A stretch of DNA of 33,016 bases from the NCBI GenBank assembly GCA_000934665.2, contig JYFJ02004330.1:1-33016 (forward strand), written 5' to 3'. Source of the stretch: Catajapyx aquilonaris (lineage: Eukaryota). Positions 1-33,016 of the stretch are shown here, piece after piece (position 1 is the stretch's first letter; every line of letters starts with the position of its first letter). The notes below the pieces were generated by a model. That model was not told the DNA's origin and did no database searches. It saw nothing but the letters and a program-made list of their open reading frames with translations. Position numbers and translations under genes: made by a program.

Positions 1-236
1 GTATCCGCTGTAGGCCTGTATCCGCAACGAGTGAAGGTTAGCTTTGGTTAGGTTGGGTTAGTACATCGTACGCTGACGATAGGGCTGTATCCGCTGACGA
101 TAGGCATGTATCCGCTGTAGGCCTGTATCCGCAACGAGTGAAGGTTAGCTTTGGTTAGGTTGGGTTAGTACATCGTACGCTGACGATAGGGCTGTATCCG
201 CTGAAGATAGGCCTGTATCCGCTGAGGATAGGGCCG
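1..236. repeat. Tandem repeat, ~107-bp period, with ~21-bp subunits (TGTATCCGCTGACGATAGGGC) and a GGTTAG/TTAGG-rich block
   Basis: Bases 1-107 recur from 108. Subunit variants continue to ~236. The array is cut by the window start. Confidence 0.9.
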
Positions 237-1355
237 GCGGTAACTTCGTCTACTGGTAGGGCCACCCAAGTCGGACAGGTCTTTGGGGTGGGAGACCGGC
301 TTAGAGAAATGCCACGCCTTCGTCTCTTTTTTTAACCAATACAAATAAACAGTTGCAACAATGGAACACTTGCTTATTTTCTTTTATTCATTGTTAATTA
401 CTTGCAATTTCATAATTCAATTACTCTTTAACGAAACGTTTCTCCACCCAAGGAATAGTGTCATTCGACTCAGCCCATGGAGGAGCTTCAGGAAATGTAT
501 AGAAACCTGCAATATTTTGGGGGGGCTAAAGTGCATCCTTACCGAGACCTGCACCCGTACAGCCGTACTGCTCAGTTCTAAGGGAGAGGCCTAACCTCCC
601 ACCCGATCGCTCTGAAAGTCCCAGCCAGACTGGTTGAAAATGGAACAGGTTGTTGACTGGCTTGGGGGCCTGTCGTCCTGGCAACCCGCCGAGTGTGCTT
701 TGTTTCTTTCCTTTCGTTGTTTATTTGAATCTGCAGATGATGGGAGCACCTTGTTGAATTCGATATCGAACGCTGTTGCCGTGGCGACGGTTTTTTTTTT
801 GTTGGGGGGGGGGNGGGGTAGTGGGGAAGATGGTAGGGTGGGGGGTGTGGGCATGGAGGAGTGCATGGGAAGGGGTAGACGGACGGGGGCTTTTTTGGCG
901 GACGAAGAATATATTGAAAGGCCTCGATGTGGCGGCATGAGATGGTGATGTGACCCCTCCGGCCTTGAGGGAAGGGAAGGATTATTGTTTCCCCGGAAAC
1001 AGAACAGTTGTTGTTCATACAACAATGCGCATTATTAGAACAGGGGGCCAAACTCCGAAAGTTCTTGTCGCCTCCTGTGGCCAAGGATGACCTGGGAGGT
1101 CAATTCCAATGCGCTACGTCCCTTCCCGGTTAAAAACTACCCCTAGTGATACCCCTGGGGAGTGTGTGGGGGCCTCCATATGGATTTTGCATAGGTCACA
1201 AAAGACAGACATACGTCGAGAAATATGTATTAGATTTTCACAGAGGCAGACCATGTATGGCAAATTGTAATTTGGCATTGACTTGAATTGTGTCACCAGG
1301 GGCATTCACATTGGACATATTCCAAGACAGTCTGGTTTGGATAAGGATCTACTCA

Positions 1356-1541
1356 AGGCCCATTCACACAGGCCGTCGACGGTTTTGGTTTTTGGTCGCG
1401 TTGACGACGCGGACCAATCATGACTCATGTAAACAAGCACAACCCATTGTTTATTAGAGCTTGTTTACATGGGTCATGATTGGCCTGCGGTGTCAACGCA
1501 ACCAAAAACCAAAACCGTCGACGGCCTGTGTGAATGGGCCT
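1356..1541. mobile_element. PIF/Harbinger-type MITE, 186 bp, near-complete palindrome
   Basis: TIRs AGGCCCATTCACACAGGCCGTCGACGGTTTTGGTTTTTGGT.../...ACCAAAAACCAAAACCGTCGACGGCCTGTGTGAATGGGCCT. 3-bp TSD TCA at 1353-1355 and 1542-1544. Confidence 0.92.
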
Positions 1542-1679
1542 TCAAGTGTTAGGTAGCAGAACTTGTTCCTTTCCTTTTGCAACATGAATCAGACAATGAA
1601 TTTCCCACAAATCCCTCCTGTCATCATGGCCATTTCATGTGGAGAATAAATTAATAATGTTTTTGACGACATAGTCTAC

Positions 1680-2460
1680 TCACTCTCTTGGCTCAATAAC
1701 ATCCCGCATGAATCCCATTCGTGTGAAAAAGGGCCACTTAATGTCTGCAGCCTCCTCCAGCCCTGCACCGCTTTTCGTGGCTTTCACCTCTCGCACTTTG
1801 CGGCGGAGCACATCACACAAGTTCTTCCACGTTTTTATGCACCATTCCTCTGGAACCAAAACATATTTTAATATGCAGAAAATTGGCTTCGAAAGTGCTC
1901 TGGGCACCGTTGTTTGTCGCTTGGCAATGAACAGCATGGAAATGAACTGAACTGAGGAGGAATTTTGGTGAGGGAAGGAACATGATCAGGTAGAGAGTTG
2001 TGTGTGCACATGATGTCTACAACGCTCAGAAACACCAGCTTCCTTTCCCAACAACATATTAGCTTGTCCCTTTTGCAACATTTTCCTGCACCCCCACCCC
2101 TGCCAGTGATCATCCTGTGATTTTTTTACAGACGCAGTGCGAATCCCTACATGCGCCCACACTCATCGTGTATGGAAAAATTCACCGGTTTTGACCCAGG
2201 TGTACCACAAGTTTAGCCAGCTACTGCTCTGCCTACATATATGGTTGGAGCTCAAGTTGTTCGAGGAACTTCATTCTAGAGATACTTCAGTACTCAGCCT
2301 GTATACTTACTTGGCTGCTCGACTCTCTCTGCCACTTCTTCCCACAGCACCTGCAGGTGGTACCGGTCTCGGTGCTCCTTGCAGCGGACGTCCCAAATAA
2401 ACTGCCGCTCATATACCTCATCAATGAGGCGCTCTTTCAGAGCCACCTCCTCCTTCAGTT
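1680..2460 (-). pseudogene. MADF-domain DNA-binding gene, spliced, probably the Harbinger partner ORF
   Basis: Exon LIDEVYERQFIWDVRCKEHRDRYHLQVLWEEVAERV ends at a GTAAGT donor (~2310). Downstream exon EEWCIKTWKNLCDVLRRK...KSGAG...KWPFFTRMGFMRDVIEPR gives the MADF tryptophan pattern. Confidence 0.8.
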
Positions 2461-2929
2461 TTTCTGCACGCTCCTGCCGCAAAGCTGCCTTCATTGTAGG
2501 CGCGACCCGTCCTACGTAGGTCCAGCCCCTTGACACATCCAATCTATCCCTGTGTTGAAGGTTGTTTAATAAAAGGCACCGCTAGGCGGGGAACGTGGCG
2601 CTGGTGCGCCTCCTGGGTTTCCTGGGTCATCTAGTCCGTGATCTAGTCTCTAGTGGAGGGTCCCTTCGGGTGGCTGCCTACTTCAGCCTGCGGACTGGTG
2701 CTGGGGGCAAAAAAAAAAAACAACAAACAAACAAACAAAAAGTCGGCATATTGCACCACGGTACTAACGGTAACTTACGGTAAAAATCCGGTAAGAGTGA
2801 AAAGACCCTAGGTAGGTTTGAACGGTTTCGAGCAGGTGTCCGCCCGAAGGGACCCCCCACTACACGAGTTCTATGCGCGGGGTTCCATGGCCAAAATGGG
2901 CCTACACGTGACCCACACGTGACTTATTT

Positions 2930-3187
2930 TGTCGCCAGCGACCGTGTGTCTGCCGTCGCAGGTATCTGGATCTAGCAGATCCTGGCGACGGGCACCAAAT
3001 CGGTCGCTGGACGGGAACTCCGTCGCTGGGGGCACCGCGTCGTGGATACGTGAACGCTCCGGCGACAGCGACGGGCACCAAATCGGTCGCTGGGGCACCG
3101 CGTCGTGGATACGTGAACGCTCTGGCGACAGCGACGGGGCACCGAATCGGTCGCTGGGCACGATATCGCGGATATGTGAATGCACCT
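2930..3187 (-). mobile_element. Harbinger terminus (TIR AGGTGCATTCACAT) with ~63-bp subterminal repeats
   Basis: GTGAATGCACCT ends at 3187 and is followed by TTA, a Harbinger-type target. GGCACCGCGTCGTGGATACGTGAACGCTC repeats at 3031 and 3094. The partner end was not found. Confidence 0.7.
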
Positions 3188-4138: not shown

Positions 4139-4617
4139 TGTCATCAACTAAACGTGATTAACCCAAGTCAGTTGACGTTGAAAGTTTTCCAATAACCCAA
4201 GCCACCAGAAATGATACAGACAAGTGTTCACAGTATATAAAAAGGTTTATTTATGAGGATACACAGAATACAGACATAGGGTCGTCTGGTTTAAACACAA
4301 TTAGAATGTTAACAAACGTGGGTTACTTACACTAGTGGAGCTTCTCGTAGATTCGTCCTGGAGAGAGTGCTTTTTGGGTCCCGAAAGACGGCTTTTATAG
4401 TGAGGATTTGTCCTTCACAATAAGAAAAAACTCGACAAGTGATGCTACGATTGATTAGTCATAATGAAAAGAAGATGGCCGATACATCGATCTACATGTA
4501 AAATTTATGGTAAAAAGGTGACCTTCGTCCGTCCTTGATCGACACTGTAAGAGTTTAAAAGATGGCGCGCATGTGGATGTTAAGTTACTGTATTCTATCA
4601 TGGCCCCTTTCGTGACA
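4139..4617 (-). mobile_element. Solo LTR, 479 bp, Gypsy-like
   Basis: Minus strand reads TGTCACGA...TATAAAA...GTAAGT...AATAAA...GATGACA, with inverted TGTCA/TGACA ends. 4-bp TSD GAAG at 4135-4138 and 4618-4621. Confidence 0.85.
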
Positions 4618-5326
4618 GAAGACTGCGTCGACGTCGTGTTCTTTAAGTCTTTAAGTTCTTTAGTGCTACAAATGCTTATGTTTACACCATTTCCTTGGTA
4701 GGCTATGCTTTCATTGATCCACTCTGCCCACGAATTGTTGACTTTTTTCCGCATTAGGCCGGTTGTCTACACGGAGTGTCATGTATTATTTTACCCCGTG
4801 CCTGCAACAAACACACATATGCATAGATAATGATGTTCAGAGACAGAGGTCCCACTTTTATAAACAGTATAGCAGTGAATGATGTGAGCTGCATTACCTG
4901 TAATAACTAGTGAAGGTAGCTATTTTGTGGTTTGTTAACGCGCCTTCTTTCTTGCCGCCAAGTGTAACTTTCTTGGCTCGGTACTCCTGGACCAGGTTCC
5001 GCATGCCAGTGCCAGCTCTCTTGGCTGCATGGTTGATGCATTCCTCCTTGGTCTGAATTCTTTCCCAATTCATTGGAACGCAAGGTGCACAAGTGGCAAT
5101 ATTTTGAGAGGACTTCATAATCTAGAACGAGGCCTGTCATGACATCAATGACAGCTCCAAGGCCATACAATGTGTATTGTTAGCCAGTTGGCATGACGAT
5201 CAGGTTGTCAACTGGCATTGTTGTCATTTAGTAAACACTTAAGAGTTCACAAGGTCAGGACGTGTGTGTTACTCAGAGGGCCTGTTCGAGGGCCGCTCAC
5301 GAGCCTTGCCAAGGCCTATCACTACA

Positions 5327-5338
5327 TGGTGGCAGCGG
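5327..5338 (+). promoter_or_regulatory. Primer-binding site, complementary to the tRNA-Leu 3' end
   Basis: TGGTGGCAGCGG directly after the LTR terminal CA matches the reverse complement of ...CCGCTGCCACCA. Confidence 0.75.
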
Positions 5339-5410
5339 GGTGAGACGTTCTACCCCTACCATTGTTGGAGAGTCAAGTTCCGAGGTCAGAGACGCCTTAT
5401 TGCAGCGGAC

Positions 5411-6784
5411 ATGGCATCCTGCCCATTTCTACCTCCGGAACCTCTCGACTTCCAACATCCAGAAGCATGGACTCTTTGGAAAATGTGCTTCCAAAGGTAC
5501 AGGACCCTGTCCAAGTTGGACAAGCAGCCGGCAGCCTATCAAGTCGATGCTTTAGTGTACTGTATGGGACCTCAGGCGGAGGAAGTCTTGATAAATTTCC
5601 ACCTGGACGAGGTTGCTATGAGTGACTACGACCTGCTGTTGATGTTGTTCGAGAATCACTTTGTCAAGAAGAATCGAACGCAGGAGTTGAACGTCACGCA
5701 AGCCTGGCTGTCTGAAGACGTTAAGCAGCAGCAGCAGCAGCAGCAGCAACGGGGTGAGCCGAGTCTACCCCTACCGTCAGACAGGGAGCCAGCGGCCGAA
5801 CAGTGCGCCGTCACTCAGGTCAGGCTGCCCGCCAAGCAGAAAGAGCAGCAGCAGCGGGGTGAGCCGAGTCTACCCCTACTGTCAGATCTATCCAGCAAGC
5901 CAGCGGCCGAACAGTGCGCCGTCACTCAGGCCAGTCTGTCAGTCAAGCAGCAGCAGTCTACTCTCCAAGGTAAGGAGATGCTGGAACAGGACCGGGTTCA
6001 TTCTTCCAGTCACACCAAAGGGTCCGCTGGCAAGAATAACGGTTCAAGTGGTCATAAGAACCAGAAGCATACTGCTTCCGAGATGTGTGCCTGTTTCAAG
6101 ACAGCAGGGCACTACGGGGAAGTTTGTCAGTCATTCCAAGAAGCCGACGTCACAGAGCTGACGCAGTTGCCCATCACATTTTTGGGGCGCTTGGAAGCTA
6201 GAGAAATCGTCGACTCCGTCCAGGACCGTGTGTTGACCGACGCCAAGGGCAACTACAAGATAGCCACCGCCGGGACCAATGTTGGGGCCAGTCGCCAACA
6301 GGCATCCAAGCAGGATCCAGAGCTACAAGAGGTTCTGGAGCGGAGTAAGCGCAGCAGCCTCAGGTCCTCCGGCAAGGTCTCCGGAGGAGGACAGATCAGG
6401 TGCAATGTTGGACGTGGAGGATGCAGCCAGGTGGCCAAGAAGTCATCAGCAGAAGAGTATCAGAGCGACACGGTGCTATGCAGCAACAGGGACCAACAAC
6501 CGGTGCCCATGGACGCTGCCCCCTCTGACGCCCCAGCCGAAGCAGCCATGGAAGTCGCACCAGCCGACACCTCCAGCGACGAGGACCTACGCGACAGCCG
6601 CTGTGTCCCGTACTGCAGGTACATGTCCGGCTGCATCCTGGAGGACCACTTGGACCACACCACTGACCGCCTGAATGTCGATGAAAAGGACGTGGTCATC
6701 AAGAAGGTGCTGAAGAGGACATCCCTGATGCAGCCTAGATCCACGGGTCGCCCGCCGCCAAAGAGGGGGAGATGTATTATGTGA
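5411..6784 (+). CDS. Gag-like protein, ~457 aa, with no recognisable PR/RT/RH/IN
   Basis: N-terminus PPEPLDFQHPEAWTLWKMCFQRYR...QVDALVYCMGPQAEEV...FENHF is typical of Mag/CsRn1-like Gypsy gag. Degenerate knuckle CFKTAGHYGEVC. PolyQ plus an internal ~90-bp duplication (5744/5849). The ORF runs through the first PPT. Confidence 0.8.
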   Translation: MASCPFLPPEPLDFQHPEAWTLWKMCFQRYRTLSKLDKQPAAYQVDALVYCMGPQAEEVLINFHLDEVAMSDYDLLLMLFENHFVKKNRTQELNVTQAWLSEDVKQQQQQQQQRGEPSLPLPSDREPAAEQCAVTQVRLPAKQKEQQQRGEPSLPLLSDLSSKPAAEQCAVTQASLSVKQQQSTLQGKEMLEQDRVHSSSHTKGSAGKNNGSSGHKNQKHTASEMCACFKTAGHYGEVCQSFQEADVTELTQLPITFLGRLEAREIVDSVQDRVLTDAKGNYKIATAGTNVGASRQQASKQDPELQEVLERSKRSSLRSSGKVSGGGQIRCNVGRGGCSQVAKKSSAEEYQSDTVLCSNRDQQPVPMDAAPSDAPAEAAMEVAPADTSSDEDLRDSRCVPYCRYMSGCILEDHLDHTTDRLNVDEKDVVIKKVLKRTSLMQPRSTGRPPPKRGRCIM

Positions 6785-6947
6785 TGCCCCGCTAAAAGGG
6801 GGATATGTATTGTTAGCCAGTTGGCATGACGATCAGGTTGTCAACTGGCATTGTTGTCATTTAGTAAACACTTAGAGTTCACAAGGTCAGGACGTGTGTG
6901 TTACTCAGAGGGCCCGTGAGCGGCCCTCGAACAGGCCCTCTGAGTAA

Positions 6948-7145
6948 CATGATGGCTCGTGGCATCGCAGGGGCCACACTTCATTGTGTATTATGTGATG
7001 CCCCGCTAAAAGGGGGAGATGTATTGTTAGCCAGTTGACAACCTGATCGTCATGCCAACTGGCTAACAATACATCTCCCCCTTTTAGCGGGGCATCACAT
7101 AATACACAATGAAGTGTGGCCCCTGCGATGCCACGAGCCATCATG
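6948..7145. repeat. Perfect inverted repeat, 90-bp arms with an 18-nt loop
   Basis: 6948-7037 is the reverse complement of 7056-7145. Confidence 0.9.
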
Positions 7146-8367
7146 CGATACTGTGATGGCAATCACATCATCCTCATTTAGGTTTGCGTCTAGTTCAAGA
7201 TAAGCTTTTCGAACACATTCCCTTGACTTTTGAAGTACTGCTGCCTTGTACTTCATGCTAGAATCTAGCAGTTTCTGCAGGTGACTTTCCCAGGTCCTCT
7301 GTGCCATAGGTTCCATGCCCATTTCCAAGCAAAAGCGCTCCATGGATGCATACCCAGAGCCAATGTTAATGAATGCATCAACGAGTCTTCTGTTCACAGC
7401 AAACGGAGCTCTTGTTGAATCTTCATCATGCACCCTTGGGCTTGTGTATGACTGACCCTGAACCTCTTCGCAAGTTGAACATACCAGACTTAGCTTTCTG
7501 CTAAAACCATGCTTTTCATTTACTTTTGGTACAATGCTTTGTTTCTTGCAAACCTTGCACATTATTGTTTTAGTGGCATTGGCTAGGCACTGGTTGGAAA
7601 TGAAAATGAATTCATTCCTACATTTTGGTGTCTCACCTGCATCAAACTTTTTCGTCAGCCTCGAAAAAGCGCATCTTCCTTGAAGTTGTTGATTGAGGAC
7701 GCTCGATTTCTTGTTCAGGTCCATGGGCAGGTCCTTGGGCAGGTTCAGATTCAGTGAGGTTGGGAGGTGCAGCAGGTTCGGAGGTATTTTGGAAACGTTC
7801 TTTTGCTGCCGCGGATCGTATCGCCGAACCTCTCTTCCTTCTTCCTCGCAGTCTCCGCCAGCGTTTACTCTGGCTATGCATTCTGCTTGCAACGGTGCGA
7901 CGCTTCCAGGACTTGCTTTTCCTCAGCAACGTTGAAGAGTACGGGTGGGCGCGGACAGGTACCGTCAGTACAGCACAATCATCACGAACTACGCAGTCTC
8001 AGCAACAACAAACTCATTGCCAGCATTGCCTCTGACAGCTGATGTGACATGGCACCAAAGACCGTATATGTTAAGACGCGCTCATGTATGGGGCAGAGTG
8101 AAATGGCCGCTAGTGCTGCCATATGTCGAGTGCGGAGTTTGGAGTTGACAGCACAGCACGTTTCGTATGGACGTGTGGACGTCCCCTTGACCAGTTTTTC
8201 CGTGCTAAAACACTCAACACAAACTACTCATATCACTCCATGTAACCAACTGGAAGCTGCTCAGGGCACAAGTTTATGCCCAAGTGTGATTCAGCCTCTG
8301 CAGTACATGTAGTGCCCATAAAAATTCGAGTGCGGATCATTTCCGAACGACCCTCGACTTATGTACA

Positions 8368-10440
8368 TTAATTGTGGTGAACAACTTTGGCCATCTTTCT
8401 GTTCTTTCTTTTTGATTTTTTGACAGCTTTCCTCTCCTTTGCTTCTTGTGAAATGGCATCATTCAATTTTTTCACTTCTTCGAAAATGATTATTTTCAAA
8501 AATAAATCAACATATTGTACCAAACATGGCTCACAGACATAGCATTTTTGCTCTTTTGATAATTTGGACATCACAGTATTCAAAAGATCCTTTCTCAAAC
8601 CATTCTTATGTTGTAAGTTGAGAAAGTTATCACCAAATGCAGCTAAGCAGCAGTCACTTAATGAATGTTGTGATGGCATGAACAAACCACAGAAGTCAGA
8701 TTTCTCAGTGTTGTAGGCTTTAAATGACATGAATAACTGTGCTGGATCCAAGCACTCAGTTTCCATACTGATGAACTTATTCTTACACGCCTCATGAGTC
8801 ATTTTACTGCAGACAAATCCGGAAACATAAACTAGAGCATTTTCATCTCTAATGTCTATAGGTCCCCGTTCATAGTGCATGTCGTTTGTCTCCTCTTCAC
8901 CTTGTACCCTACAAGTAGGGAACACAAATCCCTTCTTTTCAATATTTTGCTTGACCAAAATAAATTCTTCCAGATCCACTTTGCAATTGCTTGTTGCTGG
9001 AGGAACAATGAGTTCATTTGCCATGCATATTTTGAAGGATGATTTGAAACCGTTTATATCAGGATGGTCACCATGACCACCTTTCAGCCTTAACTGAGAA
9101 AAAAAAAATCTCCAAACAGTCTTGATTGCAACGGTGGGTCATCAAGAACTCAAATCCGTATTTAGTGGATAAGCTGTCCCACAGACCTTTCAGTGATGTG
9201 ATGTTCATCTGCCACCCTTTGAAGCAGTTTGGTTGAACTCGTGCACCTATAACCTCTATTGATTGCAAAATGGCCTGGGCCCTATCCAAAAACTCCCATT
9301 GCTTCACATTTCCATTGCAGAGACCTTTCCGCAGAGATTTCTTACAAAATTTGGTCTCTGAATTAAATATATCAAATAGTGAATCAAAGAAACTTAATAA
9401 TTCTGCTGTATGGACTGCACTGGATGGCATCTTTCCGACACTCACATGAGTATATATTCCTGCACTGACAGTGTGGCTGAAAACTTCTGTTGCCAAATGC
9501 ACAGACATCGACGCAAAAGGCGGCAATTTTATGTGCCGTTGTGTCAGCTTTGGCGCCAAAGACACTCTTTGTTTGCTGTCTCTCAAGTAAAAGGCAACGA
9601 TGTGGCACCACTTGGCTACAGAGCCAGATCCAAATCTAACGTTATATTTCATCAGCATGTTTCTTACACACTTCATCAGGTGGTGTATATCATACATGAA
9701 AAAAAAAAAATCTTCAGAAGGATCTGTGGGCAGTGTGAAAAAAGGCTGGTCATTTTTAACCCCTAGCAGCCGTTTCAAAACCTTGTTATGTGGTCCTTGG
9801 TCACATACAATCAATTTAGGAATGAAACCAGTGGCACGTATTTTCTCACAAGCTTCTAAGACTAGCTTCTTCAGAGTCCTGCCTTTCGCTCCGTTCGTGA
9901 AAAAAAAGCCAAGAGGCTGTTTCCATTTGATTTTTAAGCCCTTAATCATGAAAACTAATGCTTGGGTCGCACGAACTGGCTTAACAGGTTTCCCTTCCTC
10001 ATCTCCATAATCTTCCCAGCCCTCAATAACATCATCATTTTTATTGTATATCAACTTCTCTGAAATAGACGTTTCGTCTAATACCAATGCCACTGGCAAC
10101 TCACTTTTAGACATATACTTTGACTTCTGCCGCACAGAGAGTACACCTTCATTAAATCCAGGCCTGACTCTTAAAGCTGACAACCAGCTTTGAAGTGAAC
10201 GGACAGGTGGCAAAGCAAGCAATTTTTGGCAAAATCTGTATGCCTTGGGGCTACAGTAATACAGAGCTATAGCAAAACTTTTTTCATAACCTGTGTACCT
10301 TCTACCTCTGGGCTTATGCTTCCGTAGTGCAAGTTGGCTTCTGAAAAACATCTTCATGTGGTCACTGATGTGGTCAGCAATCTCCCAGATTCTGGCATTT
10401 CCCAAAAACTAGAGCATTTTGCGCTGCCTGTTCATTGGCC
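8368..10440 (-). pseudogene. P-element/THAP9-family transposase, 5'-truncated, frameshifted at the A-run ~9099-9108
   Basis: SPKAYRFC..LALP, LVLDE, KWKQPLGFFF, CDQGPHN, YDIHHLMKCVRN, MSVHLATEVFS, FDIFNS and NQDCLEIFF. C-terminal ALVYVSGFVC is in ORF 8368-9024. Confidence 0.93.
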
Positions 10441-10816: not shown

Positions 10817-11298
10817 CTTCCCAATCCCCCACCCTCATGACTAGAGAAAGACGGAAATATTTTAAACCAAATTATTCTGTGAAGCCGATGATGAAATTTT
10901 GGCATTTCACAATTCCTCGTCCAATGGACATAATATTACTGTTAAATACCGATAGCGTAGTGACTGAAATAAGATGCGTTAAAATTATCACTGAAAAGTT
11001 TTTGCAATAAATCGAACTTATTGTTAGTATAAACATTTTGTGGAGTAGGCAGGATTTTTTTTCTGAAAATGAAATGCTCAATTCTCTGTTACATTCTTTA
11101 ATGCGGTACATTCTTTTAAAATATAGAGAGAAGCTACATCATCGTCAAATGCATCGTAAATACATCAATATACAGTCATTCATAAAAATATTACAATATA
11201 TACGTGTATAATACACAATATATTATACAATATACATCAAATCGGATACATCATCATCAAATCATGTACATCATCTATCATCATCAAATCATGTACAT

Positions 11299-11599
11299 CA
11301 GTGGTCGGCAACCTTATGTCAAGGGTGGGCCGGATAAAAAATTTCCAACCTTCCGAGGGCCGCTATGATAAGATAGCCATTTCGGAAGTTTATTCCCCCC
11401 CCCCCCCCCCCCCNCTGGGCGTCTTCAAGGTCGAGACCTGTACTCATTTCGGAAAATGGGCTTTTCGCTCGTATCGTTATCGCAGTCAATTTTTATTATT
11501 TCCCAAGATTTTCTCGAAATATTTCAATGGCGCCGCGGGCCAGATGCGGACCCTTGGCGGGCCGCGTCCGGCCCGCGGGCCGTAGGTTGCCGACCCCTG
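11299..11599. mobile_element. hAT Charlie/Buster-type MITE, 301 bp
   Basis: TIRs CAGTGGTCGGCAACCT / AGGTTGCCGACCCCTG. 8-bp TSD ATGTACAT at 11291-11298 and 11600-11607. Confidence 0.93.
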
Positions 11600-11656
11600 A
11601 TGTACATCATCATTAAATCGGATACATCATCGTATACATCATCAAATACATAGAGA

Positions 11657-13054
11657 CTAAACAAGTTTTTTTCTGGCCTTCCTCATTGCAAAATCTTCGC
11701 AGAGTTCATCAAAATTTGTTTGTCTAAGTTTGTCACTTTCTATGCACAAAATGCTCAGTGCGACCAACCTCTTTTGAGACATTGTGGCCCTTAATTCATT
11801 TTTAATTCTTTTGAGTCTTGAAAAAGACCTCTCTCCTGAGCAGTTAGTAACCATTAAACTAAGAAATAGCCGCAAGATTGCTTCAACATTAGGGAAGGCC
11901 ATCTGAATTTTTTCCTTGTATATAATTTGATAAAGGTCTGTATGAGACAGTGACTGCTCGTGCTCTTCTATACTCATATGGTTTTGTCTCACGTACAAGT
12001 GAAAGTGCAGAAGTTCTAAAGTAAGTTTCTGGTCAACATCTTCAGGGTATGCTTCTATCAACAGTTCAACACCTTGCTGAATGTCTTTCTTAGATGCTGC
12101 CAGATTAGCGAGAAAGGAAAACATTTGTGCAACATCATTATATACAGAAGCTCTTTTTCTTAAATTGGCGTCAAGTGCATCTAGTACAGGAATAAATGAT
12201 TTTACCCTAAACTTATCTCTTGAAGTTGCCCTCGCCTCCTGGTTAGGTAAGATAACATGGCATTCCTGTGATTTTCTGAGGTTTCATGACCTTGGATAAT
12301 GCAGGAGTTTTTCCAATCGTCAAACCCATCCGAAGCTAAAGCAGATACAATGTTGGGGGGGGGGGGGGGGGGGGGCAATTCACATTGNTGCACACAAAGC
12401 AATAAATCCGGCCACTTGAGGGAGAATACACAAGCCACTCTCGGCTGTATTTTTCCCCATTGGCTTTTGTGGAATAAAAAAGATATTTTGTGCAAAATCT
12501 GGACTGCATTTTGTACATTCGCTTAGAATTTAAAAATGGGCCACAATGATGCTGAAGTTGAGACGGCCCCTTCTCTACCCAATATGATACTTCCTCAGAT
12601 GTTAATTCTTTCCACAGACCAACGTCTTTTGCTGTGTCTGGAATAGCTTGGTCTTTGCCTACCTTGCCAGATGTGAGTTGACAATTCGGAGTCTCCACAT
12701 AATCAATTCTGCCTCTGTAGCCTCTTGTCCTGTAGGTGACACTTGAGTAAGTTCTCTTACTTCATCTTGAGCCGGCATCATGGCTGCTTTCGTATGATCA
12801 CATTGCTGCTCTGCGTCCTGCTCCGTATTTTCTCTTTCGGGAAGGATTTCTTCTGGTTGACTGGTTGGCTGTGTAGCTCCAAAACACTCATTTATTTGCG
12901 TTTGTGTTAATGCATCTTCTTCACCACTGGCACTTGTTGCTGCTGGCAGTGGCCGATGTAAGAAAGCAGTGATTGGTGTTAACTTCTTTACCATATCATC
13001 TTCAAGTCTCTTTTTCTTGCGCTTGCTAGCACCACTTTCAAATCTCTTACTCAT
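11657..13054 (-). pseudogene. hAT transposase remnant: TTF zinc finger plus C-terminal dimerisation domain, catalytic core deleted
   Basis: REWLVYSPSSGRIYCFVC...GFDDWKN...HETSENH joins near 12225 to FIPVLDAL...FPNVEAILRLFLSLMVTNCSGERSFSRLKRIKNELRATMSQKRL. Confidence 0.9.
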
Positions 13055-13369
13055 GGTCGGAGTAGAATCTGAAAATTTAAGAAATAAAATTAATCATGAT
13101 CAGTTATTAGAAAGGAAAACCTAAAAAAGCATTCTCACAAAATGGGGTTCACTTCAATGAAGAAATAATATTTATCTTTTAATAAGATTTGGGCAATTTT
13201 TTCGAAGCTTGCGCACCGTACCGTATTGACAATTACATTGCAAAATCTGAATGAAATCTTCTTCCAAAACCATTTACAATTGAATGCCCTTTTTCTATCG
13301 TTGACAAAGGTGCTATAAATCGGCATAATTTGATTACTAACCTTACTGATGAAAACTGCAACGACTTAT

Positions 13370-15820: not shown

Positions 15821-15845
15821 TAAAATAAGGGATCCCCTTGACACA

Positions 15846-21174: not shown

Positions 21175-21188
21175 TCCTTCCCTCAGTT

Positions 21189-21965
21189 TCAGGACTTTTT
21201 AGCCAGGCTAGAAAGGATCAACCCTTGAGGTCGCCTATGTCCCATACACGGACATATGCAAAACGAAAAGAAAACAAATCGTACACACACAGTTAAAAAA
21301 AAAGAAAGGGGTTCGACGTCCCTTTTCACTTCCTGACAGTTGACCTGGACGCTCACTCCTCCGCCTGGTATCCATCGACCCCCGGTGGCTGTGGTTCCTC
21401 TTCCCGCTGGTGATTGGGGACGTTCCTCCGTTCTCCCCCGTCCGCTGATGTCTCCGGCTGCTGATTCGCCTGTCGTGGGTCTAGGTTTCCCCCGAGACAA
21501 CGGTGGGTGTGAATTCCGGGAGTGTCCTGGAGGGTTCGCTGAGCCCAGCCCGATGACGGTGGAGTGACCAAGGGATGAGGCCACTGGTGACACGCTCTGA
21601 AGGTCCAATCGGCTCCAAAAATAGTCTTCCTCTGGAGGGGAGGCCTCAGCGGAAGGGGCCCAAGCCTGGACGATGATTCGGCTGCCCTCAGGATAATAGC
21701 GCCAGTCCGTGATCCTGTGCGCGTTGATGCGCACTACTTGGAGTCCCGGACCTGATGGGTCCGGCGATATCATTACTGAGCCGTGGGTGGCTATGTATTC
21801 TCCAAGGCGGAGCTGCATCCATGGTTGTGGGGCGGTAATTGGAGCTGGGAGAGTGTAGGTCACGACTGGGTATCCCGGCTGAGAATAATCCTCCAGGAAA
21901 GGAGGGAGAGGTGTGAAGGAAGTCATGATCTTTGGTAGAAGGAGGACAGAGGACTGACTGGCCAC
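21189..21965 (-). CDS. Family A copy 2: unknown protein immediately upstream of PPT+LTR
   Basis: 258-aa open frame with an ~85-aa N-terminal region conserved with copy 1. The true stop may be earlier, since the tail runs through T-rich sequence. Confidence 0.65.
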   Translation of the reverse strand: MASQSSVLLLPKIMTSFTPLPPFLEDYSQPGYPVVTYTLPAPITAPQPWMQLRLGEYIATHGSVMISPDPSGPGLQVVRINAHRITDWRYYPEGSRIIVQAWAPSAEASPPEEDYFWSRLDLQSVSPVASSLGHSTVIGLGSANPPGHSRNSHPPLSRGKPRPTTGESAAGDISGRGRTEERPQSPAGRGTTATGGRWIPGGGVSVQVNCQEVKRDVEPLSFFLTVCVRFVFFSFCICPCMGHRRPQGLILSSLAKKS

Positions 21966-22155
21966 ATCCCGGCGTTCAAACGGGAAGGGCCTTCCTAAAA
22001 TGTCGACACTGCAAAACGTCAGTCATTAACCTCCCCTGACTTGTATCAATGATCATGGGAAATGACCCTCTATCGTTCCTCCACCAGTCTTCCTCTGCTG
22101 ACTCGATACCTTAGAGGATGCACGGAACATATTGCGCTACTTCCCGTGGTCACCT

Positions 22156-22572: not shown

Positions 22573-23205
22573 TTACATGTCCATGACCTCCAACGCCTTG
22601 GCCGCTGCCGGGTCCGGTGCCACCTCCTTTGGCATCTTGTCCTGGCCTTCCTTGATGCGATTCTGCAGGTTGCAGATGTAATCCGCCATTATCTTCAATG
22701 CCGCCCCCGCGGTGATCTCTTCGCCTGTGGATACCCCCACCAACCGGAGGGCCTCCTTTTTAGCAGCGAGCTCCACTTGTCGCCGCTGCCGGTGCTGCCG
22801 GTCATGCCTACCCCGCATGTAGGCGGCAGGTGTGGCGATGGTCACCAAGGGCTCCCCAGGGCCTGCATCTTCCAGCTGAATGGGAGGCCCAGACGCCTCC
22901 TCTTCTTCCTCCGAGGCCTCCAGGTAGCAGGTCCCCACCGACCTCACTCCCAAGGGAAAAGGCACGGGGTGTACCTTGATCCCCTCGCAGATGTCCCGGG
23001 GAGTGGCCGTCTTAATCACTGGGAATTTTTGTTCCTCCTCCCCCCCGGAAGCAGCCAACACCTGAGCATATGAGACCCTGGCTGCGTTTTTGTTGTAGCG
23101 CCCTCTCTTGGGCCCACCCCGGCCACGGAAAGGATGCGTACCGCGACCCCGACCTCGACCCGTCTGCTGCCTTCTTCATTGCTCCAAAGAGATGGTTTCA
23201 ACCAT
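22573..23205 (-). pseudogene. Family B copy 2: RG-rich N-terminus plus bHLH-like C-terminus, one premature TGA (23176-23178)
   Basis: MVETISLEQ*RRQQTGRGRGRGTHPFRGRGGPKRGRYNKNAARVSYAQV is in frame with ORF 22573-23061. It ends ~150 bp upstream of PPT+LTR. Confidence 0.7.
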
Positions 23206-23961: not shown

Positions 23962-24841
23962 CTGAAACAGAACAATAAATTTAATAAAAGGGGTCATTTC
24001 ACAGATAACAACTTTTATTTATGGTACTATACAGTGGGACATGACATGTTTAATACAGTATACATTATCTGTTTTAAATCACTTTTATTGCAATGCCTTG
24101 TAGGCCAACAGGCCTGACAAGTTGATCCTAGTCCACACCACCAAATATAATGTCTGAATACAAATTATGGAAAGAAAGTTGACCCTAATCCACATACATA
24201 CACTAGGCTAGTAACTTTAGGTGCTAGTCATCATCACTCTCATCTCCGCCTTCCTCAGCCTCACCATGTTTATTCTCGTACATCCTGGCACACATTAAGG
24301 TTCTATGCATTGCTTCCACTTTGAAGCCGTAACAATTACTCTGGGTAATTGCCCTCTTCGCATGAAGGAGACCAATTGTTGTGTCGGTGCTCAGGCGATT
24401 CCTGGCGTCTGTTACCATTTGGTTTGTTGCAGAGAACACTCTCTCAACTGCAGCACTTGAGTGTGGCAGGGTCAGCAAACTCTTCACATATGTACATAGA
24501 GCCGGAAACACGGCACTGCCATCGCCTTTTTTCAGTTTGCTGATATGAGACCGAAACTCCTGGATGGAAAGACTTTCAGGCAAGCTGGTGTTTCTCAATA
24601 AACGCCACTCATTATCAATGTGGTTAAAGTCGGCATCCTGTATGATGTTTGGGAAGTCGCAGAAGACATGAGAAATGGATGGCAGCTCTTTCTTCTGAAC
24701 TACTTCTGGATCCATGAATTCCAGTTTCTTCAGACTCTGAAGATGTTGAAAGGGAAATCTTATGTAGATCTGCGAAGCTCCTTCCACCAGAAAAGCGAGA
24801 CATCGCTTCCGAAACATCTCCAGATCTTCTGCTGTAACATA

Positions 24842-26102
24842 CGAGGGTGGTTCAATAATTTATCTACCTGAGTATCAAAATGAATACCTTTATTGAAATC
24901 CTCCTAATCATTTTTCAATACAGTCCCCCTTGAGCTCTACACACTTCTTCCACTTTGTCTCAAGTGACCTTAGGCCGTCAAAAAAAATAGTTTCCTGTTG
25001 GTCTGCAAACTACTGCCTGGAGTTCTTCATCGCTGGAGAAACGCTGGCCACGCAGGAATTTCTTCAAGTTTCGGAACAGGAAATAGTCGCTGGGGGCCAG
25101 GTCTGTGCTGTACGGCGGATGGTTCAGTGTTTGGAAGCCACATTCAGCAATGGCGGCCTGTGATTTGTGGGCCATGTGCACAGGTGCGTTGTCGTGGAGA
25201 AGAAGAATGCATGATGCAAGTTTCCCATGACGTTTGCTGTCGCAGAGCCCTCACAGTTTCAGCATAGGACTCCCCAGTGTTGGTCTTCTTGTGAGACATG
25301 AAATCCAGGAGCAGTAGGCCGTTTTCGTCCCAGAAAACAGTGGCCATGATCTTCCCTGCGGAGCGCTGCACACGGAACTTCTTAGGGTCGGAGAACCCTT
25401 GTGCTTCCACTGCATTGACTCTTGTTTGGATTCAGGGTCCCAGTGATGGACCCATGTTTCGTCACCTGTCACCACTCGAGGGAAAAATCCATCGGGATAA
25501 TCTCCAAGGAGCTCCAAATTCTCCTGACTGTACTCGCTGCGGCAGGCTTTTTGCATTGGCGTGAGCATTCTGGAACTGACCTTAGACCATCCCCAAATTT
25601 TCATGGACAATTTTCCAAACTGTTCCTGCTGAAATGTCCAATTCTTGCACGATTTCCGCAACCTTGACTCGACGGTCCATCATAATGAATGTCTCCACTT
25701 TGTCGCACATTTCCTCTGAAAATGCACTCACCGGCCGCCCTGGGTGGGGGTCATCTTCAATTGACTCCCGTCCCCATTTGAACAGCTTATTCCAAAACTT
25801 GACCTTGTAGGCCGATGGTGCACCATCACCAAGCACTGTTCCCAGCCTTTCATGGATCTCCTTTGGTGTTTTCTGCTCTTTTGTGAGGAACTTAATCACC
25901 GACCTATGCTCCAAATCTACAACTTTCTTCGCAGAGAGACAGGCACTATCACTTCACATCCTGTCACTCTGAGGTTGAACAACCTACTGTGCTATAATTT
26001 GGTGTGAGTCACCCCAAGACATGTATATAGCTGTCTGGGCAAGTTCGGACTTGCACCTCTACGCTTTCATACTCAGGTAGATAAATTATTGAACCGCCCT
26101 CG
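24842..26102 (-). mobile_element. Mariner element, 1261 bp, both TIRs present, frameshifted transposase
   Basis: 34-bp TIRs CGAGGGYGGTTCAATAATTTATCTACCTGAGTAT. TA TSD at 24840-24841 and 26103-26104. Motifs HRSVIKFL, VTGDETWVHHWDPESKQESMQW, SAGKIMATVFWD and HPPYSTDLAPSDYFLF. Confidence 0.96.
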
Positions 26103-26365
26103 TATATTCGTCCAGAAGAAAGAAATGCACCCAATTTCCCACCCAAATATAACTTGTCCAGAGGGACATAGTTTGTAGGATCCCGAAACTGAATGTTCTC
26201 CACTGGTGTTCTCTGAACATAATCGGGTTTCAGGTAGCATTCCACAATAGACTTGTACAAGGATGAGACCCGTGCATATAGCAGGTGAACTTTTGGCTGT
26301 TCACTCTGCATTTCTTTGTTCAGGTCAGCAAAATACGGCAGAATGAACTCAAGAAAGAGGAGGTA

Positions 26366-26576
26366 CACCCGCGAGCATAAAGATGGAGACGGCAAGCCCT
26401 CACCTTCGGCAGGCTGCTCTGCCAATCTCAGCTATTACGGTATCAAATATACTGACATAAATACACGAACACAAACCTGAAGCAGCTAACTCGGTCCAAA
26501 AAGAGTTCATTAATTTGAGTCGGATAAAGAAAGGTCAAAAAAGGGCCTGCCGTCTCCATCTTTATGCTCGCGAGGG
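26366..26576. mobile_element. Tc1/mariner-type MITE, 211 bp
   Basis: ~35-bp TIRs with core CGCGAGCATAAAGATGGAGACGGCA. TA TSD at 26364-26365 and 26577-26578. Removing it restores KEPTCRM|YLLFLEF in the hAT frame. Confidence 0.9.
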
Positions 26577-28139
26577 TACATTCGGCATGTTGGTTCCTTT
26601 AGCCAGCCTAATATGCTTGCCGCTGCAAGTACATGGTCAACTGTGTCACAGCATGTTCAAAGTAGAGTACCAATGCTTGGTGCTGCTCAAGCAGCCTCAC
26701 TACAACAGACAAAAAGGAGAGCCAGCGAGTTTGCGATAGTTGAAGTGTTTTGTGTGCTGCCACCTGTACAAATGCTTGAAACTCAACAAACTCTGCAGTT
26801 CTTTTCGGACTGGAATGAAAATAGTTGGAGACGTCACGGGCCAAGTCCTCCAAAAATCTGGGCAGTTTCATGCAGGCATAAGAGGCGCACAAATGAAAAG
26901 AATGGCAAACGCACTTCAGAATAAACAGGCCAGGAATCTCATTTTTCAGATGGGAAGACAGCGAATTGTGGGCACCCATCATTACATTCGCCCCATCAGC
27001 TGCAAACCCAATCAAATTCTTTTGGTATTCAATGTCCTGATCTTTGAAAGATTTCTTGATTGCATCATGTAGAACTACAGCAGTAGCATCTTGTAGTGGC
27101 ACGAGGTCGAAAAAGTGATCCTTCGCCCGAAACTCACTATCAACCACACGGACTACAAGGCAAAGGTGTTTTTTACAACTCTTGTCTGTAGACTCGTCTA
27201 CCATCAAGGAAAAGGATTGACAGCGGAGTAATTCGCTTAACTCCCTACGTGAAATCTCCCCAATGACATTTCTGACAATTTCAGTACATTTTGTGCGTGA
27301 ACATTTCATCTTAGCGGCTATGTTGGAGTCTGGACACATGCTTGGTATCAGTTTTGATAAATGACCAGCAACATCGAAGGGCAAGTTGTGTTCAGCGATA
27401 AATGCTGCTAATTTGATTTCTGCGTCCTTTATTTTTGCATCACCACTGGTGGTTGATTGACTTACGAAGGAATCCAGCGTGGCGCTCTGACGAACAGTTC
27501 TGCACATTTCCACGTGCTTCTTCCCAGTTGAATGCTTCTGGATTTCCGCTTTCCCACCCTTTCCATCAAAATTGCAGGCCTTGCAATGAAAATACAGGCT
27601 TCCTTTCTTGCTTCTGGAAAGCCAGCCACTGAATTCAGGCTGTTTCTCCCATTCCGTAAGATACTTCTGCTGGTATTTTTTTTCTTTTTTGTCTGGAGGT
27701 TGTTGCACGTCATCTTCGCTGCTACTCATTTCGCAAACTGCCGAATAAGTAGTTACCATGTAAAATCTTATTATAAAATTGACTACAAAAGAGTAATAAT
27801 TTCTATATACTTTCAAGTTAAATGAGATTAGGCAAAAGCTGATAAAGAGAGTTGTGGCTGAAATATGCGAACTTCTGCACTTTCTGGCTCATTCCTACCT
27901 GTATGTAGCCTATAGCAGTCTCTCTACTTCTGCCTGCGCCCTGCGTGCTGCCGATTCTGCAAACAATATAAAGGACCATGGTGCTATGGAATAGCCAATC
28001 ATCGTATCCGCATTTTCTAAGCGGGGAATTCCCTCTGCCGGTGGGCCCGGGCGCTACGTCAAAAAAATCATGTCGAAATAAAGGTTCCCTCCCTGCGGAA
28101 CGATGCAGTTAGGGGGGAAAAAAATTTGTATCGCATGTG

Positions 28140-28237
28140 TTGTAACATCAGTAGATTTGTTAACAAATGCAGTAGGTCAGCAGATCGTCTTCAAATTCAG
28201 TAGATCTACTGAAATTCAGTAGCATCTGGCAACCCTG
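28140..28237 (-). mobile_element. 5' terminus of the hAT element (TIR CAGGGTTGCCAGATG) with CAGTAG subterminal motifs
   Basis: CATCTGGCAACCCTG ends at 28237, ~500 bp upstream of the transposase start. Confidence 0.75.
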
Positions 28238-28997: not shown

Positions 28998-29260
28998 CTA
29001 CCAGTACGGTAACCATTTTCCATTGCTTGTCTTTATTAGCTCATACTCTTCCAAACCAGGTGCATTTTTAATGCCAAACTCCATGTGCTTTTTAAATTCC
29101 TCATAATCTTCGCCGTGGACAACTGGTAGCTTGATCTCATTACCGCATGTGCTGGCTAGTGGTAGTTTCAGTACCACCTTGTGCTCCTGGAAACTCAACT
29201 TCGGGTGCTCGTTGAAGCCACCCACACCCACAGCTGACACACATCCATCAGATCAATGAT
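28998..29260 (-). pseudogene. HECT E3 ligase C-lobe fragment (G2E3-like)
   Basis: GFNEHPKLSF...LPLASTCGNEIKLPVVHGEDYEEFKKHMEFGIKNAPG fits the HECT PxAxTC.N.L.LP...Y..F motif containing the catalytic Cys. Confidence 0.8.
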
Positions 29261-29737: not shown

Positions 29738-30350
29738 CTACTTCTTCTCCAGCTGTGCAGCAAAAGATAGGACTGCTGTCGATAATTTTTTTAGCGTGGA
29801 ATTCTGCTTCTGCATCATTTCCCGAACTTCATCTTTCCACTTCCTGTCGGACTCATCCCTCTTATCCATGTACCCTTGGAACCACTTCGGTGGTCCATCA
29901 TCTTCATCATCTTCTTGCTTCTCGCTAGTGGCCCTCTTCCTCCTCCTTTCTGATCTCCCCAGAACCTGTTCAGAACTCCGCTTTCTCATGGATGCTGCTG
30001 GCACATCCGCCTCCACCCTTGTCCCAGAGGCAGAGGCGTACACAACACGTGCTGGAGGTGAAATGTTCGGTTTGCCACCCATCATCCTCTCAAAATCCTC
30101 CATGTGAGGCCACTTGCTTGCACCTCGCCCAGTCTTGGATGTTCTATTCTTTACGGATTTGTATGTGGCCAAAAGGTTTATATCCCATTTCTTTGAAGCA
30201 GCTGGACCCTCCACATTGTGACCATGTTTTTTCATCTCTGCTGAAACTTCACTCCACTGGTCTTTTTTTTCTCCTCCCAGATAGGGGCGATAGAACTTTC
30301 TTCTCTTCAATGACAGACAGGAGCAGTTTGATGGCGGGTGCAGTCCACTT
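29738..30350 (-). pseudogene. Myb/SANT-like (trihelix) DNA-binding protein, Harbinger-partner type
   Basis: KKDQWSEVSAEMKKHGHNV...ASKKW..NLLATYKSVK...KTGRGASKWPHMEDFERMMGGKPNISPP followed by a coiled coil. Confidence 0.8.
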
Positions 30351-31083
30351 AAATGCTGTAATGCAAAATCACAAATCAGGAAAGGGTGTTTTATCCATTT
30401 TAGCCTCCATCTGCAGGTCCATGTAAGGACATTGTCGCAGCTCACTGGCAATGAAGTCACCAAATATACTCCACTTGTCCTGTGCCTGTGCTCCGTCGAG
30501 TTGCTTTTGGAGGTTTTGCAAAGTTTCCTGAGCCTGGTGAAAGCCTTCAGGCATGTCTTCCCCCCTACTTTATTTCCTCAGAGGCTCTGGTGAAATTGGT
30601 ATCACCTCATGTGGTGATCCCTCGTCTTGTGTTCCCTGGAAAGACATGATTGCGTTGAAATTGTGGACATACTGCCACAGAAATGTGTCCGATTTTCACT
30701 CGATTCCTGCCCCCATGTTAATTAAATGGGCTTTTCCAAAATGCAATTTTTATCTCACCAGAACTTGTTGTAAGGTCATTGTTAGGCCGAAAATGGGAAA
30801 AAGACGAACTAGGCGGCCTGTGCCAGATCATCTACTATATTTTGGTGCAATTTATGTGTCGATTGAACCATTTTGCGGTCGTACGGGCAAAGTAATGTAG
30901 ACATGTCGAATCCCCATAATTGTGCTGCCTATATGCTTAAGCCAGTTTGTTTAGGTCGTCTCCAAATGCTCCGCATTGTTACCGTATTTTTGCTAATGCG
31001 CCGACTTAATTGAATCGGTGACTTCCCTTCTCTTCCCCTGCATGTGCTGTCTTTTTTCCAGCTGCTACTGTACGCATACGTCA

Positions 31084-32919
31084 CTATTTAATTCCCGGGA
31101 CAGAAATATGCTGCACGATTCTCTCTACATGTACACGTGCAGCAGCAATGTCTGCTGTCTCGTGGGCTTCCTCTGCAGAAAGTTGCTTTTTTTTGAGGAA
31201 TGGAGGCTGTATAATTCCAATTCCATTCGCAGAACAAACATCTTCAATGCGGAACCCTTTATCGACCATTACTTGATCGACACCTGCTTCAAGTCTTTCC
31301 ACCAACCCTGACTCCTCGAAAATGGCTTTATCCGAGGCACGGCCCCCATAAATGTCACTACAAAAATTGATCAAGCCTCCCGGTGTGACCCCCACCATGA
31401 ACTTGGCTGTATGACACCCATAATAATGTGAGTATGTCAAAATTTTACAATTCAGAGAACGATTCTTTTCGAGAGCTATCTCGGTAGGCCTACAGTCCTA
31501 AACGATTCGTGTGTTCATATAATTTGTAAAACAGAGGGGCAAATTCATCATAATGTTATGTCTTGTGGGCCATACAAACGCTGACTTCATGATCTTAGCA
31601 AGAACCCTGACGCAACTGTGAAATATATCGCGACATGTTGTCGCGCTCACCTGAACAAAATTGCCAAAGCAGAAAAAGTAAGGCAGGTCTTCAGCTTTGA
31701 CATCACAAGTATGACTGCATCTGCTGTGGTCAACAACCGTGATTTGTTACAGTGTAACTCATCCAGGCTCTCCACCAAAAGCTGAAGAAAAGCAAAACTT
31801 GGCAACCCTGTAAATATGTGCAGGTCTTGGTCAGATTTCAGCAAATCGCTCAATATTTGCCTCTTCCCCAGGTCCAAAAATGTATTAACTTGCACTCCTT
31901 GGTCACTGGAGGTTGTCAGGATTTCTTCCAGAACTTCTTTCTCCTGAACCTCAGTGGAATTCTGTGTCATGCTGTCTGGAGCAGCATCCCATGGAGTGCC
32001 AGGCATATGGCTGGCTAGAGTGCTGACATAAGTCAGGGTTTTCCATAGTGGGACTGCGGGCACGAACTGGACCTGAGAAGCAGAAATAGTCAGTATCAGT
32101 AAATCAGTAAAGAGTCACAAGATTAACATATTACAAGTGAAGCAGCTGCCAAGGTTCAGTTGAACTGTGGAAATTAATAGAGTATCAGTTTTGTGACCTC
32201 AGTGGGGAGGCTAAGCTTTCTCTTGTTAGTACTGTACAGTAAGTCGTCGCTGGACTTCGGACAGTCATACTATTTGGTACATAGAGAGTTCCACCAATCT
32301 TGTGTGGATGTGAGTTTGATGCATGTACAACATGTTGTTTCGCTACTTGTAGGTTCTGTCAGCTCAGGCAAATCTTTCTCGACAAAATTAATGGAAATTT
32401 GATCTCCATGGTAAAACGGAACACCTAATCACTCCAAATATTGACTTCATGCAGTAAGTACTGTATCTCCAATCAATTTTTAAAAATATACATTCTTTTC
32501 GATATGCAAGTAAATCCATTTACCAGAAGTGGCATACTTCTTCTCTGCTCGCTGATTCATACGCTCTTTGCGGCCCTCAACAGTTGAATGGCTGGTCCTA
32601 GGCAGGTCATGGGTCCTGACTGGTAAATTCTTTGATGGGAGAGTGCCAAGCCTGAGTCGGTGGTGCATTGCAGGTACTCCTGTAAAGAAACATGCATTGT
32701 ACTGTTCACTGTTGTGATACACTGTCATGAAAAGTTTGGCCTGCATGAAATTATGCATTATCACTCACCTGGCAGATAGTAATCCTTGGGCTCAAAGTGC
32801 AGACTGCACACGTACATCGTCCTGGTTGCAGTCTTCCCCATTCGAAGCTTTACTTCCCATTCCTTCTTCAGGCTCTTGTCTTTCGGGAAAGTGTGGATCC
32901 ATATCCCTGCCTGGGCATC
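31084..32919 (-). pseudogene. ISL2EU/Harbinger-group transposase: THAP + HTH + DDE, spliced and degraded
   Basis: THAP exon IHTFPKDKSLKKEWEVKLRMGK...YVCSLHFEPKDY (32769-32919). HTH part FTGLPSF...LTFSALAILF. DDE part TYSHYYGCHTAK, YGGRASD, VMVDKGF and ARVHVER. Confidence 0.88.
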
Positions 32920-33016
32920 TGTCATCAACTAAACGTGATTAACCCAAGTCAGTTGACGTTAAAGTTTTCCAATCACCCAAGCCACCAGAAATGATACAGA
33001 CAAGTGTTCACAGTAT
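32920..33016 (-). mobile_element. U5 end of another LTR of the 4139-4617 family, cut by the window edge
   Basis: Nearly identical to 4139-4236 and starts at the same TGTCATCAAC terminus. It abuts the THAP coding sequence. Confidence 0.85.

Follow-up and report, generated by a model that had tools for sequence, protein, structure and literature searches.

Nested transposons whose coding sense runs almost entirely along one strand have been described in several systems. Flamenco and the flam-like clusters of Drosophila consist of dense, nested fragments of many families with the coding sense almost all on one strand (PMC10643416, PMC6367137), and the fragments of uni-strand clusters are strongly antisense-biased relative to a capped, spliced and polyadenylated transcript (PMC6367137). 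Sense insertions into such precursors of PIWI-interacting RNAs (piRNAs) are thought to be selected against, perhaps through their poly(A) signals (PMC10643416). Uni-directional piRNA clusters are also common in the DNA-transposon-rich setting of Anopheles gambiae (PMC4662822), and an antisense excess inside introns is documented for long interspersed nuclear elements (LINEs) and long terminal repeat (LTR) elements (PMC3088655). Finally, human nested piles contain elements inserted in older elements, with some pairs showing a 2- to 2.6-fold excess of the same sense (PMC2836564). Here we analyze contig JYFJ02004330.1 of Catajapyx aquilonaris (the window: 33,016 bases, ~46% G+C, with four single Ns), a nest of transposons in which every open reading frame (ORF) that reaches a Pfam curated cut-off lies on the minus strand.

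The window resembles each of these systems in part. With flam-like clusters it shares dense, nested fragments of many families whose coding sense is nearly all on one strand (12/12 supported ORFs minus, in 7–8 independent units, at a two-sided P of only 0.008–0.065), the precursor to which they would be antisense being hypothetical. In contrast, flam-like clusters have a length of 227–1,085 kb, a defined promoter, and a bias that comes exclusively from Gypsy-type endogenous retroviruses (PMC10643416), whereas the window is 33 kb long and dominated by DNA transposons. The only signs of retroelements in it are solo LTRs and, on the opposite strand, a possibly gag-like ORF, and the scan of its 472 ORFs revealed no Gypsy or retroviral domain. 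It shares its richness in DNA transposons with A. gambiae, but the clusters of that mosquito were defined by small-RNA mapping (PMC4662822), while the window is known from sequence alone. It shows the same one-strand excess as intronic transposons, but the intronic evidence covers LINEs and LTR elements, DNA transposons having been excluded from the orientation analysis (PMC3088655). The bias in human nested piles concerns mainly Alu and L1 and is explained by their target-site mechanics, and does not predict 7–8 of 7–8 units in one orientation across unrelated cut-and-paste families (PMC2836564).

Results

Profile-supported transposon genes lie on the minus strand

So that no item was picked by eye, all 472 stop-to-stop ORFs of at least 40 amino acids (252 plus, 220 minus) were run against Pfam with E values up to 0.01. 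Twelve ORFs reached the curated cut-off, all of them on the minus strand, compared to none of the 252 on the plus strand. These twelve carry MADF (2297–2581), Mutator (7098–7922), P/TNP-like sequence matching three families (9071–10408), two hAT dimerization domains (11660–12283 and 24227–24859), the mariner families DDE_3 (24981–25250), Transposase_1 (25147–25431) and HTH_48 (25585–25953), DUF4371 (26611–27888), Myb_DNA-bind_4 (29741–30577), DDE_Tnp_4 (31087–31497) and THAP (32764–32928). Matches below the cut-off that agree with their neighbors were also found mainly on the minus strand (MADF at 1683–1985, Mutator at 4910–5179, HTH_Tnp_4 at 31650–32114 and HECT at 29001–29252), the sole such match on the plus strand being a DUF4371 fragment at 28021–28200. 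By comparison, sub-threshold matches to unrelated families (Orexin, COG2_C, PUB2_N, XAF1_C, Sru, Ribosomal_S13_N and TBCC), which we took as noise and thus as an internal control, were distributed 4 plus to 3 minus. Long ORFs of at least 150 amino acids were likewise unequally divided (14 minus vs. 5 plus).

At least eight distinct transposon copies, mostly near full length but decayed, are nested in the window, inserted beside or into each other: one Mutator-like and one P element, two hAT copies, a mariner, a transposase with THAP and DDE_Tnp_4 domains, and Myb-like and MADF-like ORFs. They are accompanied by small hairpins and by three copies of a solo LTR. The dispersed repeats of the window fall into three families (the LTR and two modules, A and B, described below), each of which is in direct orientation throughout. 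One large composite element or a segmental duplication was considered for the whole window and rejected; the repeated modules are the LTR, A and B only. None of the 472 ORFs matched a reverse transcriptase, integrase, protease or envelope family in Pfam, a relaxed Pfam search of 28 ORFs (E up to 5) gave nothing further, and Rfam and tRNA scans of the window were empty. With the exception of a weak HECT fragment, the Pfam search of the 472 ORFs found no non-transposon coding exon on either strand. Both edges of the window lie in repeats, a 107-bp tandem repeat at the start (2.1 copies, 1–224) and an LTR copy at the end, which would fit one complete contig from a fragmented assembly; a second tandem repeat (63 bp, 2.5 copies) is found at 3022–3180.

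The skew rests on seven or eight independent units

An earlier note on this DNA had counted 19 minus-strand fragments against one on the plus strand and described the bias as extreme, with a two-sided probability of ~4e-5. The clean minus skew of profile-supported transposon genes holds, but the robust independent units number 7–8 minus and 0 plus. The twelve ORFs shrink to this number because the Mutator-like gene is in two pieces, hAT copy 2 in two to three and the mariner in three, and because the THAP, HTH and DDE_Tnp_4 ORFs belong to one transposase. The two-sided binomial probability is 0.016 for 7:0 and 0.0078 for 8:0, or 0.065 for 9:2 and 0.039 for 10:2 if weaker items are included; thus, a realistic P value is 0.008–0.065. 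Given that 604 windows were read in this genome, these P values predict ~5–40 windows of this kind by chance. Moreover, only half of the window can be oriented, as 16.6 kb gives no orientation. We conclude that the sequence does carry a minus bias, but that, taken by itself, this bias stays within the reach of chance combined with selection.

The individual items in the earlier count fared differently. Those labeled MADF, Mutator-like, P, hAT (two), mariner and Myb all reach the Pfam cut-off on the minus strand, as does the item labeled ISL2EU through its DDE_Tnp_4 domain, the type being PIF/Harbinger or ISL2EU. The claimed LINE ORF1 could not be verified, no ORF among the 472 matching a family of that kind, and the two orphan exons could not be located. 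The four ORFs of modules A and B are two duplicated modules and hence at most two events, although the minus frame is supported for B. The two stand-alone LTRs are true solo LTRs, with three co-oriented copies in all, but their strand cues conflict and they cannot be assigned to the minus strand. As for the single plus-strand item, one clear insert does exist (5173–7106), but it is joined by a second, weak item, the DUF4371 fragment.

Possible causes of the skew

The likeliest cause of the bias, which we hold with belief and doubt evenly matched, would be that, within a long transcription unit on the plus strand, copies are kept or lost according to their orientation. Those with promoter, splice and termination signals parallel to the host transcript would be lost over time, while copies opposed to it would persist; this is the filter proposed for flamenco-type precursors and ordinary long introns alike. 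The host transcript could be either a piRNA precursor or an ordinary long intron, each of which we give about half of the weight of the filter. Consistent with a filter, the split of supported ORFs is complete (12/12 minus vs. 0/252 plus) while the noise matches are balanced, the long ORFs are skewed in the same direction, and the LTR, A and B repeats are all direct. Purine skew within annotated spans also agrees with minus sense (z = −9.35), and the plus-strand insert is skewed the opposite way. A single duplication cannot explain the bias, because the ORFs represent six or more transposase superfamilies that are unrelated to one another. In addition, the one clear plus-strand element is also the youngest, as would be expected if a filter removes such copies gradually (n = 1).

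Several observations weigh against such a filter. After collapse to independent units (7–8:0 or 9–10:2), P is only 0.008–0.065. The poly(A) hexamers AATAAA and ATTAAA are not depleted on the plus strand (36 plus vs. 39 minus, with dinucleotide-shuffle means of 25.5 and 24.8). The pyrimidine excess of the plus strand is limited to the annotated minus-sense elements, and the 16.6 kb outside them is symmetric (purine 0.5027, z = 0.69; GC skew −0.005; AT skew +0.014). Recursive-splice (ratchet-point) motifs, which occur in some long arthropod introns, number 0–1 per strand (YAG|GTRAGT, 0 plus and 1 minus; AGGTAAG with a pyrimidine tract, 1 plus and 0 minus). An exon-like ORF on the plus strand is absent at the Pfam cut-off (0/252). 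Thus hexamers, composition and splice motifs, three weak tests, give no support for transcription of either strand. Finally, the intron orientation study left DNA transposons out, and does not give the strength of the filter for that class (PMC3088655).

We considered that the skew might have arisen by chance, from elements in random orientation whose pieces and unverifiable items were counted and whose 7–8:0 split was picked from many windows. The reduction of twelve ORFs to 7–8 units, the four claimed items that could not be verified, the limit of two events for modules A and B, the ~5–40 windows expected at P = 0.0078–0.065 among the 604 windows read, the flat result of all three DNA proxies for transcription and the half of the window that cannot be oriented all speak for this explanation. 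Nevertheless, the clean split of 12/12 vs. 0/252 with balanced noise matches speaks against it, as does the shared orientation of the LTR copies and of each A/B pair, and on balance we find chance possible but doubtful. Within the filter, a uni-strand piRNA cluster, for which the earlier note took the window as a candidate, would be transcribed from the plus strand into a precursor antisense to almost every resident, and its piRNAs would silence mainly DNA transposons. The nested, diverse insertions with long open frames (446 amino acids in the P element, 426 in a hAT), that is, recently active families, are compatible with such a cluster, as is the finding that 55% of chromosomal clusters in A. 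gambiae have more than 75% of their piRNAs on one strand (PMC4662822). In contrast, the Drosophila flam-like bias is carried exclusively by Gypsy (PMC10643416), while none of the 472 ORFs here matches a reverse transcriptase, integrase or envelope, and the Anopheles data assign DNA transposons only 12% of piRNAs (PMC4662822). Since clusters make up a small share of genomes, the prior is also low, and the plus-strand hexamers are not depleted; we regard a piRNA cluster as rather unlikely.

The other form of the filter, a plus-strand host gene with a long intron or a long non-coding RNA from which sense insertions, being disruptive to splicing or termination, were removed, appears to us unlikely, a little more so than the cluster. 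It agrees with the established antisense bias of intronic LINEs and LTR elements (PMC3088655). It also agrees with the window's lack, on either strand, of a non-transposon coding exon other than the weak HECT fragment, but neither a plus-strand exon nor recursive-splice motifs were found in the window, and the undepleted plus-strand hexamers count against an intron as well. Moreover, intronic orientation bias is usually moderate and is weakest for DNA transposons. A preference at insertion, by which nesting elements land parallel to transcribed residents with no host transcript involved, is in our view highly improbable. Human intergenic nested pairs do show up to a 2.6-fold sense bias, as for MuDR in ERVL (50 vs. 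20), but the same paper concludes that intergenic insertions are usually random (PMC2836564). Within the window, the mariner is parallel to the hAT copy 2 that surrounds it, but the 1.9-kb insert is opposed to its Mutator host, such that the two orientable nested pairs disagree. Furthermore, six unrelated transposase superfamilies share no known mechanism of this kind.

Minus-strand elements

The features of the window are collected in Table 1. The two MADF ORFs are probably a single domain parted by a gap or an intron, because their profile coordinates run on (positions 1–38 in 2297–2581 and 40–84 in 1683–1985). The two Mutator pieces are one gene copy, contiguous on the profile and parted by the 1,934-bp insertion. 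The P-element/THAP9-like transposase consists of ORFs of 446 and 256 amino acids, with the ORF at 8371–9138 placed there by adjacency only.

Of the two hAT copies, copy 1 has upstream ORFs (12205–13093) that were assigned by adjacency and reading. Runs of ~19 C (11392–11414) and ~20 G (12355–12388), 940 bp apart, form inverted ATT(C)n/(G)nCAAT arms in this region; each lies near a single N, and the G run breaks the frame of copy 1. These paired homopolymer runs may be a sequencing or assembly artifact. Copy 2 is one copy, with a DUF4371 ORF of 426 amino acids; two insertions interrupt it, the mariner and a small hairpin element (26363–26579). The mariner has terminal inverted repeats and a TA duplication on either side. 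The hairpin within copy 2 is one of four short hairpins that resemble miniature inverted-repeat transposable elements, with inverted arms of 27 to 84 nt, the others being at 1355–1542, 2651–2862 and 11288–11610.

At the right end of the window, the THAP, HTH_Tnp_4 and DDE_Tnp_4 ORFs line up as what would be one transposase of the PIF/Harbinger or ISL2EU type, whose THAP N terminus is truncated by LTR copy R3. PIF/Harbinger elements have two genes, and the Myb-like ORF, just downstream of this transposase, may be the second gene of the element. The HECT-like ORF lies on the minus strand, as in the earlier count, but falls below the Pfam cut-off; its alignment with NEDD4L (PDB) covers the catalytic-cysteine motif, with an E value of only 0.53. 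This isolated ORF, which resembles the end of a HECT ubiquitin-ligase domain, may be a piece of a gene or an exon that was captured.

Table 1. Coding remnants, repeats and insertions in the 33,016-base window
Feature	Position	Strand	Evidence
MADF-domain ORF pair	1683–2581	-	Pfam MADF_DNA_bdg 23.9 bits (cut-off 22) and 19 bits
Solo LTR R1, 479 bp	4139–4617	.	TG...CA ends, GAAG/GAAG flanks
Mutator-like transposase, downstream piece	4910–5172	-	Pfam Mutator E 1.8e-4, sub-threshold; profile 172–205
1,934-bp insertion in Mutator gene	5173–7106	+	5-bp CAATG target duplication; terminal inverted repeats perfect over 44 bp
Mutator-like transposase, upstream piece	7107–7922	-	Pfam Mutator 66.5 bits; profile 12–165
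P-element/THAP9-like transposase	8371–10408	-	Pfam TNP-like_RNaseH_N 107.5, TNP-like_GBD 63.1, Tnp_P_element 39 bits
hAT copy 1, frameshifted, homopolymer-interrupted	11660–13093	-	Pfam Dimer_Tnp_hAT 35 bits on 11660–12283
Module B1, ORF of no known family	14682–15155	-	Amino acid identity to B2 69% over 151 amino acids
Solo LTR R2, in module B1	15156–15635	.	Full second copy, first half diverged, oriented as R1
Module A1 ORF	15849–16750	-	Weak likeness to A2: tblastn 43%/42 and 52%/23 amino acids
Two ORFs labeled Sola by the earlier note	18910–19595	-	Without Pfam match up to E 5
Module A2, 277-amino-acid ORF	21192–22022	-	Pairs with A1
Module B2, 200-amino-acid ORF	22576–23175	-	Pairs with B1
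hAT copy 2	24227–27888	-	Dimer_Tnp_hAT 32.8 bits (24227–24840), DUF4371 39.3 bits (26611–27888)
Mariner copy, 1,261 bp, inside hAT copy 2	24842–26102	-	Transposase_1 49.7, DDE_3 28.6, HTH_48 24.1 bits
Weak hAT-like fragment (DUF4371 positions 7–52)	28021–28200	+	Pfam E 0.0062, 16.9 bits, sub-threshold
HECT C-lobe-like fragment, 84-amino-acid ORF	29001–29252	-	Pfam HECT 20.1 bits (cut-off 23.9)
Myb/SANT-like ORF, 279 amino acids	29741–30577	-	Pfam Myb_DNA-bind_4 30 bits (cut-off 27)
THAP+HTH+DDE_Tnp_4 transposase, frameshifted	31087–32928	-	DDE_Tnp_4 100.5 bits, HTH_Tnp_4 E 0.007, THAP 33.2 bits
LTR copy R3, 5' 97 bp, cut by window end	32920–33016	.	Oriented as R1 and R2

A young insertion on the plus strand

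The main plus-strand item is the young insertion in the Mutator gene, which is the youngest element, with terminal repeats that remain 100% identical and an intact target duplication. Its left end is repeated internally in direct orientation, and the insertion is purine-rich on the plus strand (z = 3.08), opposite to the remainder. The longest ORF in the window (513 codons, plus strand, 5243–6781) lies within it; the homology search with this ORF returned no homologue, and its nearest Atlas clusters are Retrotrans_gag and zf-CCHC (0.82–0.88), a lead only, by which the ORF would look gag-like. The combination of gag-like coding, inverted ends and a target duplication matches no family that we can name. 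At the right end of the insertion is a palindrome (6948–7145) with 93-nt arms that are 99% perfect, the outer 39 bases of which are Mutator flank (7107–7145) with an inverted copy at 6948–6986. This palindrome reflects either a junction that was rearranged by fold-back or an error of assembly.

Modules A and B, the "Sola" ORFs and the solo LTRs

Modules A and B each occur as a pair of diverged direct repeats, and the modules follow one another in a different order in the two copies. Differences between B1 and B2 at codon positions 1, 2 and 3 of the minus frame number 19, 27 and 43; the minus frame is favored by this excess at third positions, as an open plus frame would give the reverse pattern. 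These differences suggest that module B may be real coding sequence without a known family. For module A, the open minus frame is the sole cue to orientation. Searches with B2 found no relatives among longer proteins or in PDB and no usable Atlas match, and A2 had no match among 1.84 billion representatives; the only PDB match of A2, to a streptavidin-like protein (E = 0.41), was read as chance. Sensitive tblastn searches found no further copies of A or B in the window. Likewise, the assignment of the ORFs at 18910–19595 to Sola gained no support from Pfam, and a homologue search with the ORF at 19269–19595 found none.

The LTR copies R1 and R2 are 92%–98% alike in one half and strongly diverged in the other. 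This uneven divergence and the placement of TATA and AATAAA, which are present on both strands, were tried as cues to the strand of the LTR; they conflict, and it was left unoriented.

Discussion

We have described a nest of diverse transposons in which the supported coding sequence is confined to one strand, and the window is a reasonable candidate piRNA cluster of a known kind. The further suggestion, that this contig is a piece of a uni-strand piRNA locus system that archives and targets cut-and-paste elements (P, hAT, Mutator, mariner and Harbinger/ISL2EU), unlike the Gypsy-borne flamenco, is one that we put forward tentatively and think unlikely to hold.

If no plus-strand piRNAs come from this locus, the window would serve as a caution that strand counts made by eye over-count pieces of elements, and that a 7–8:0 split is expected several times in hundreds of windows. 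If, on the other hand, such piRNAs are produced, the locus would exemplify a one-strand cluster directed chiefly against DNA transposons, and would broaden the flamenco model derived from Drosophila, in which the strand bias is specific to Gypsy retroviruses.

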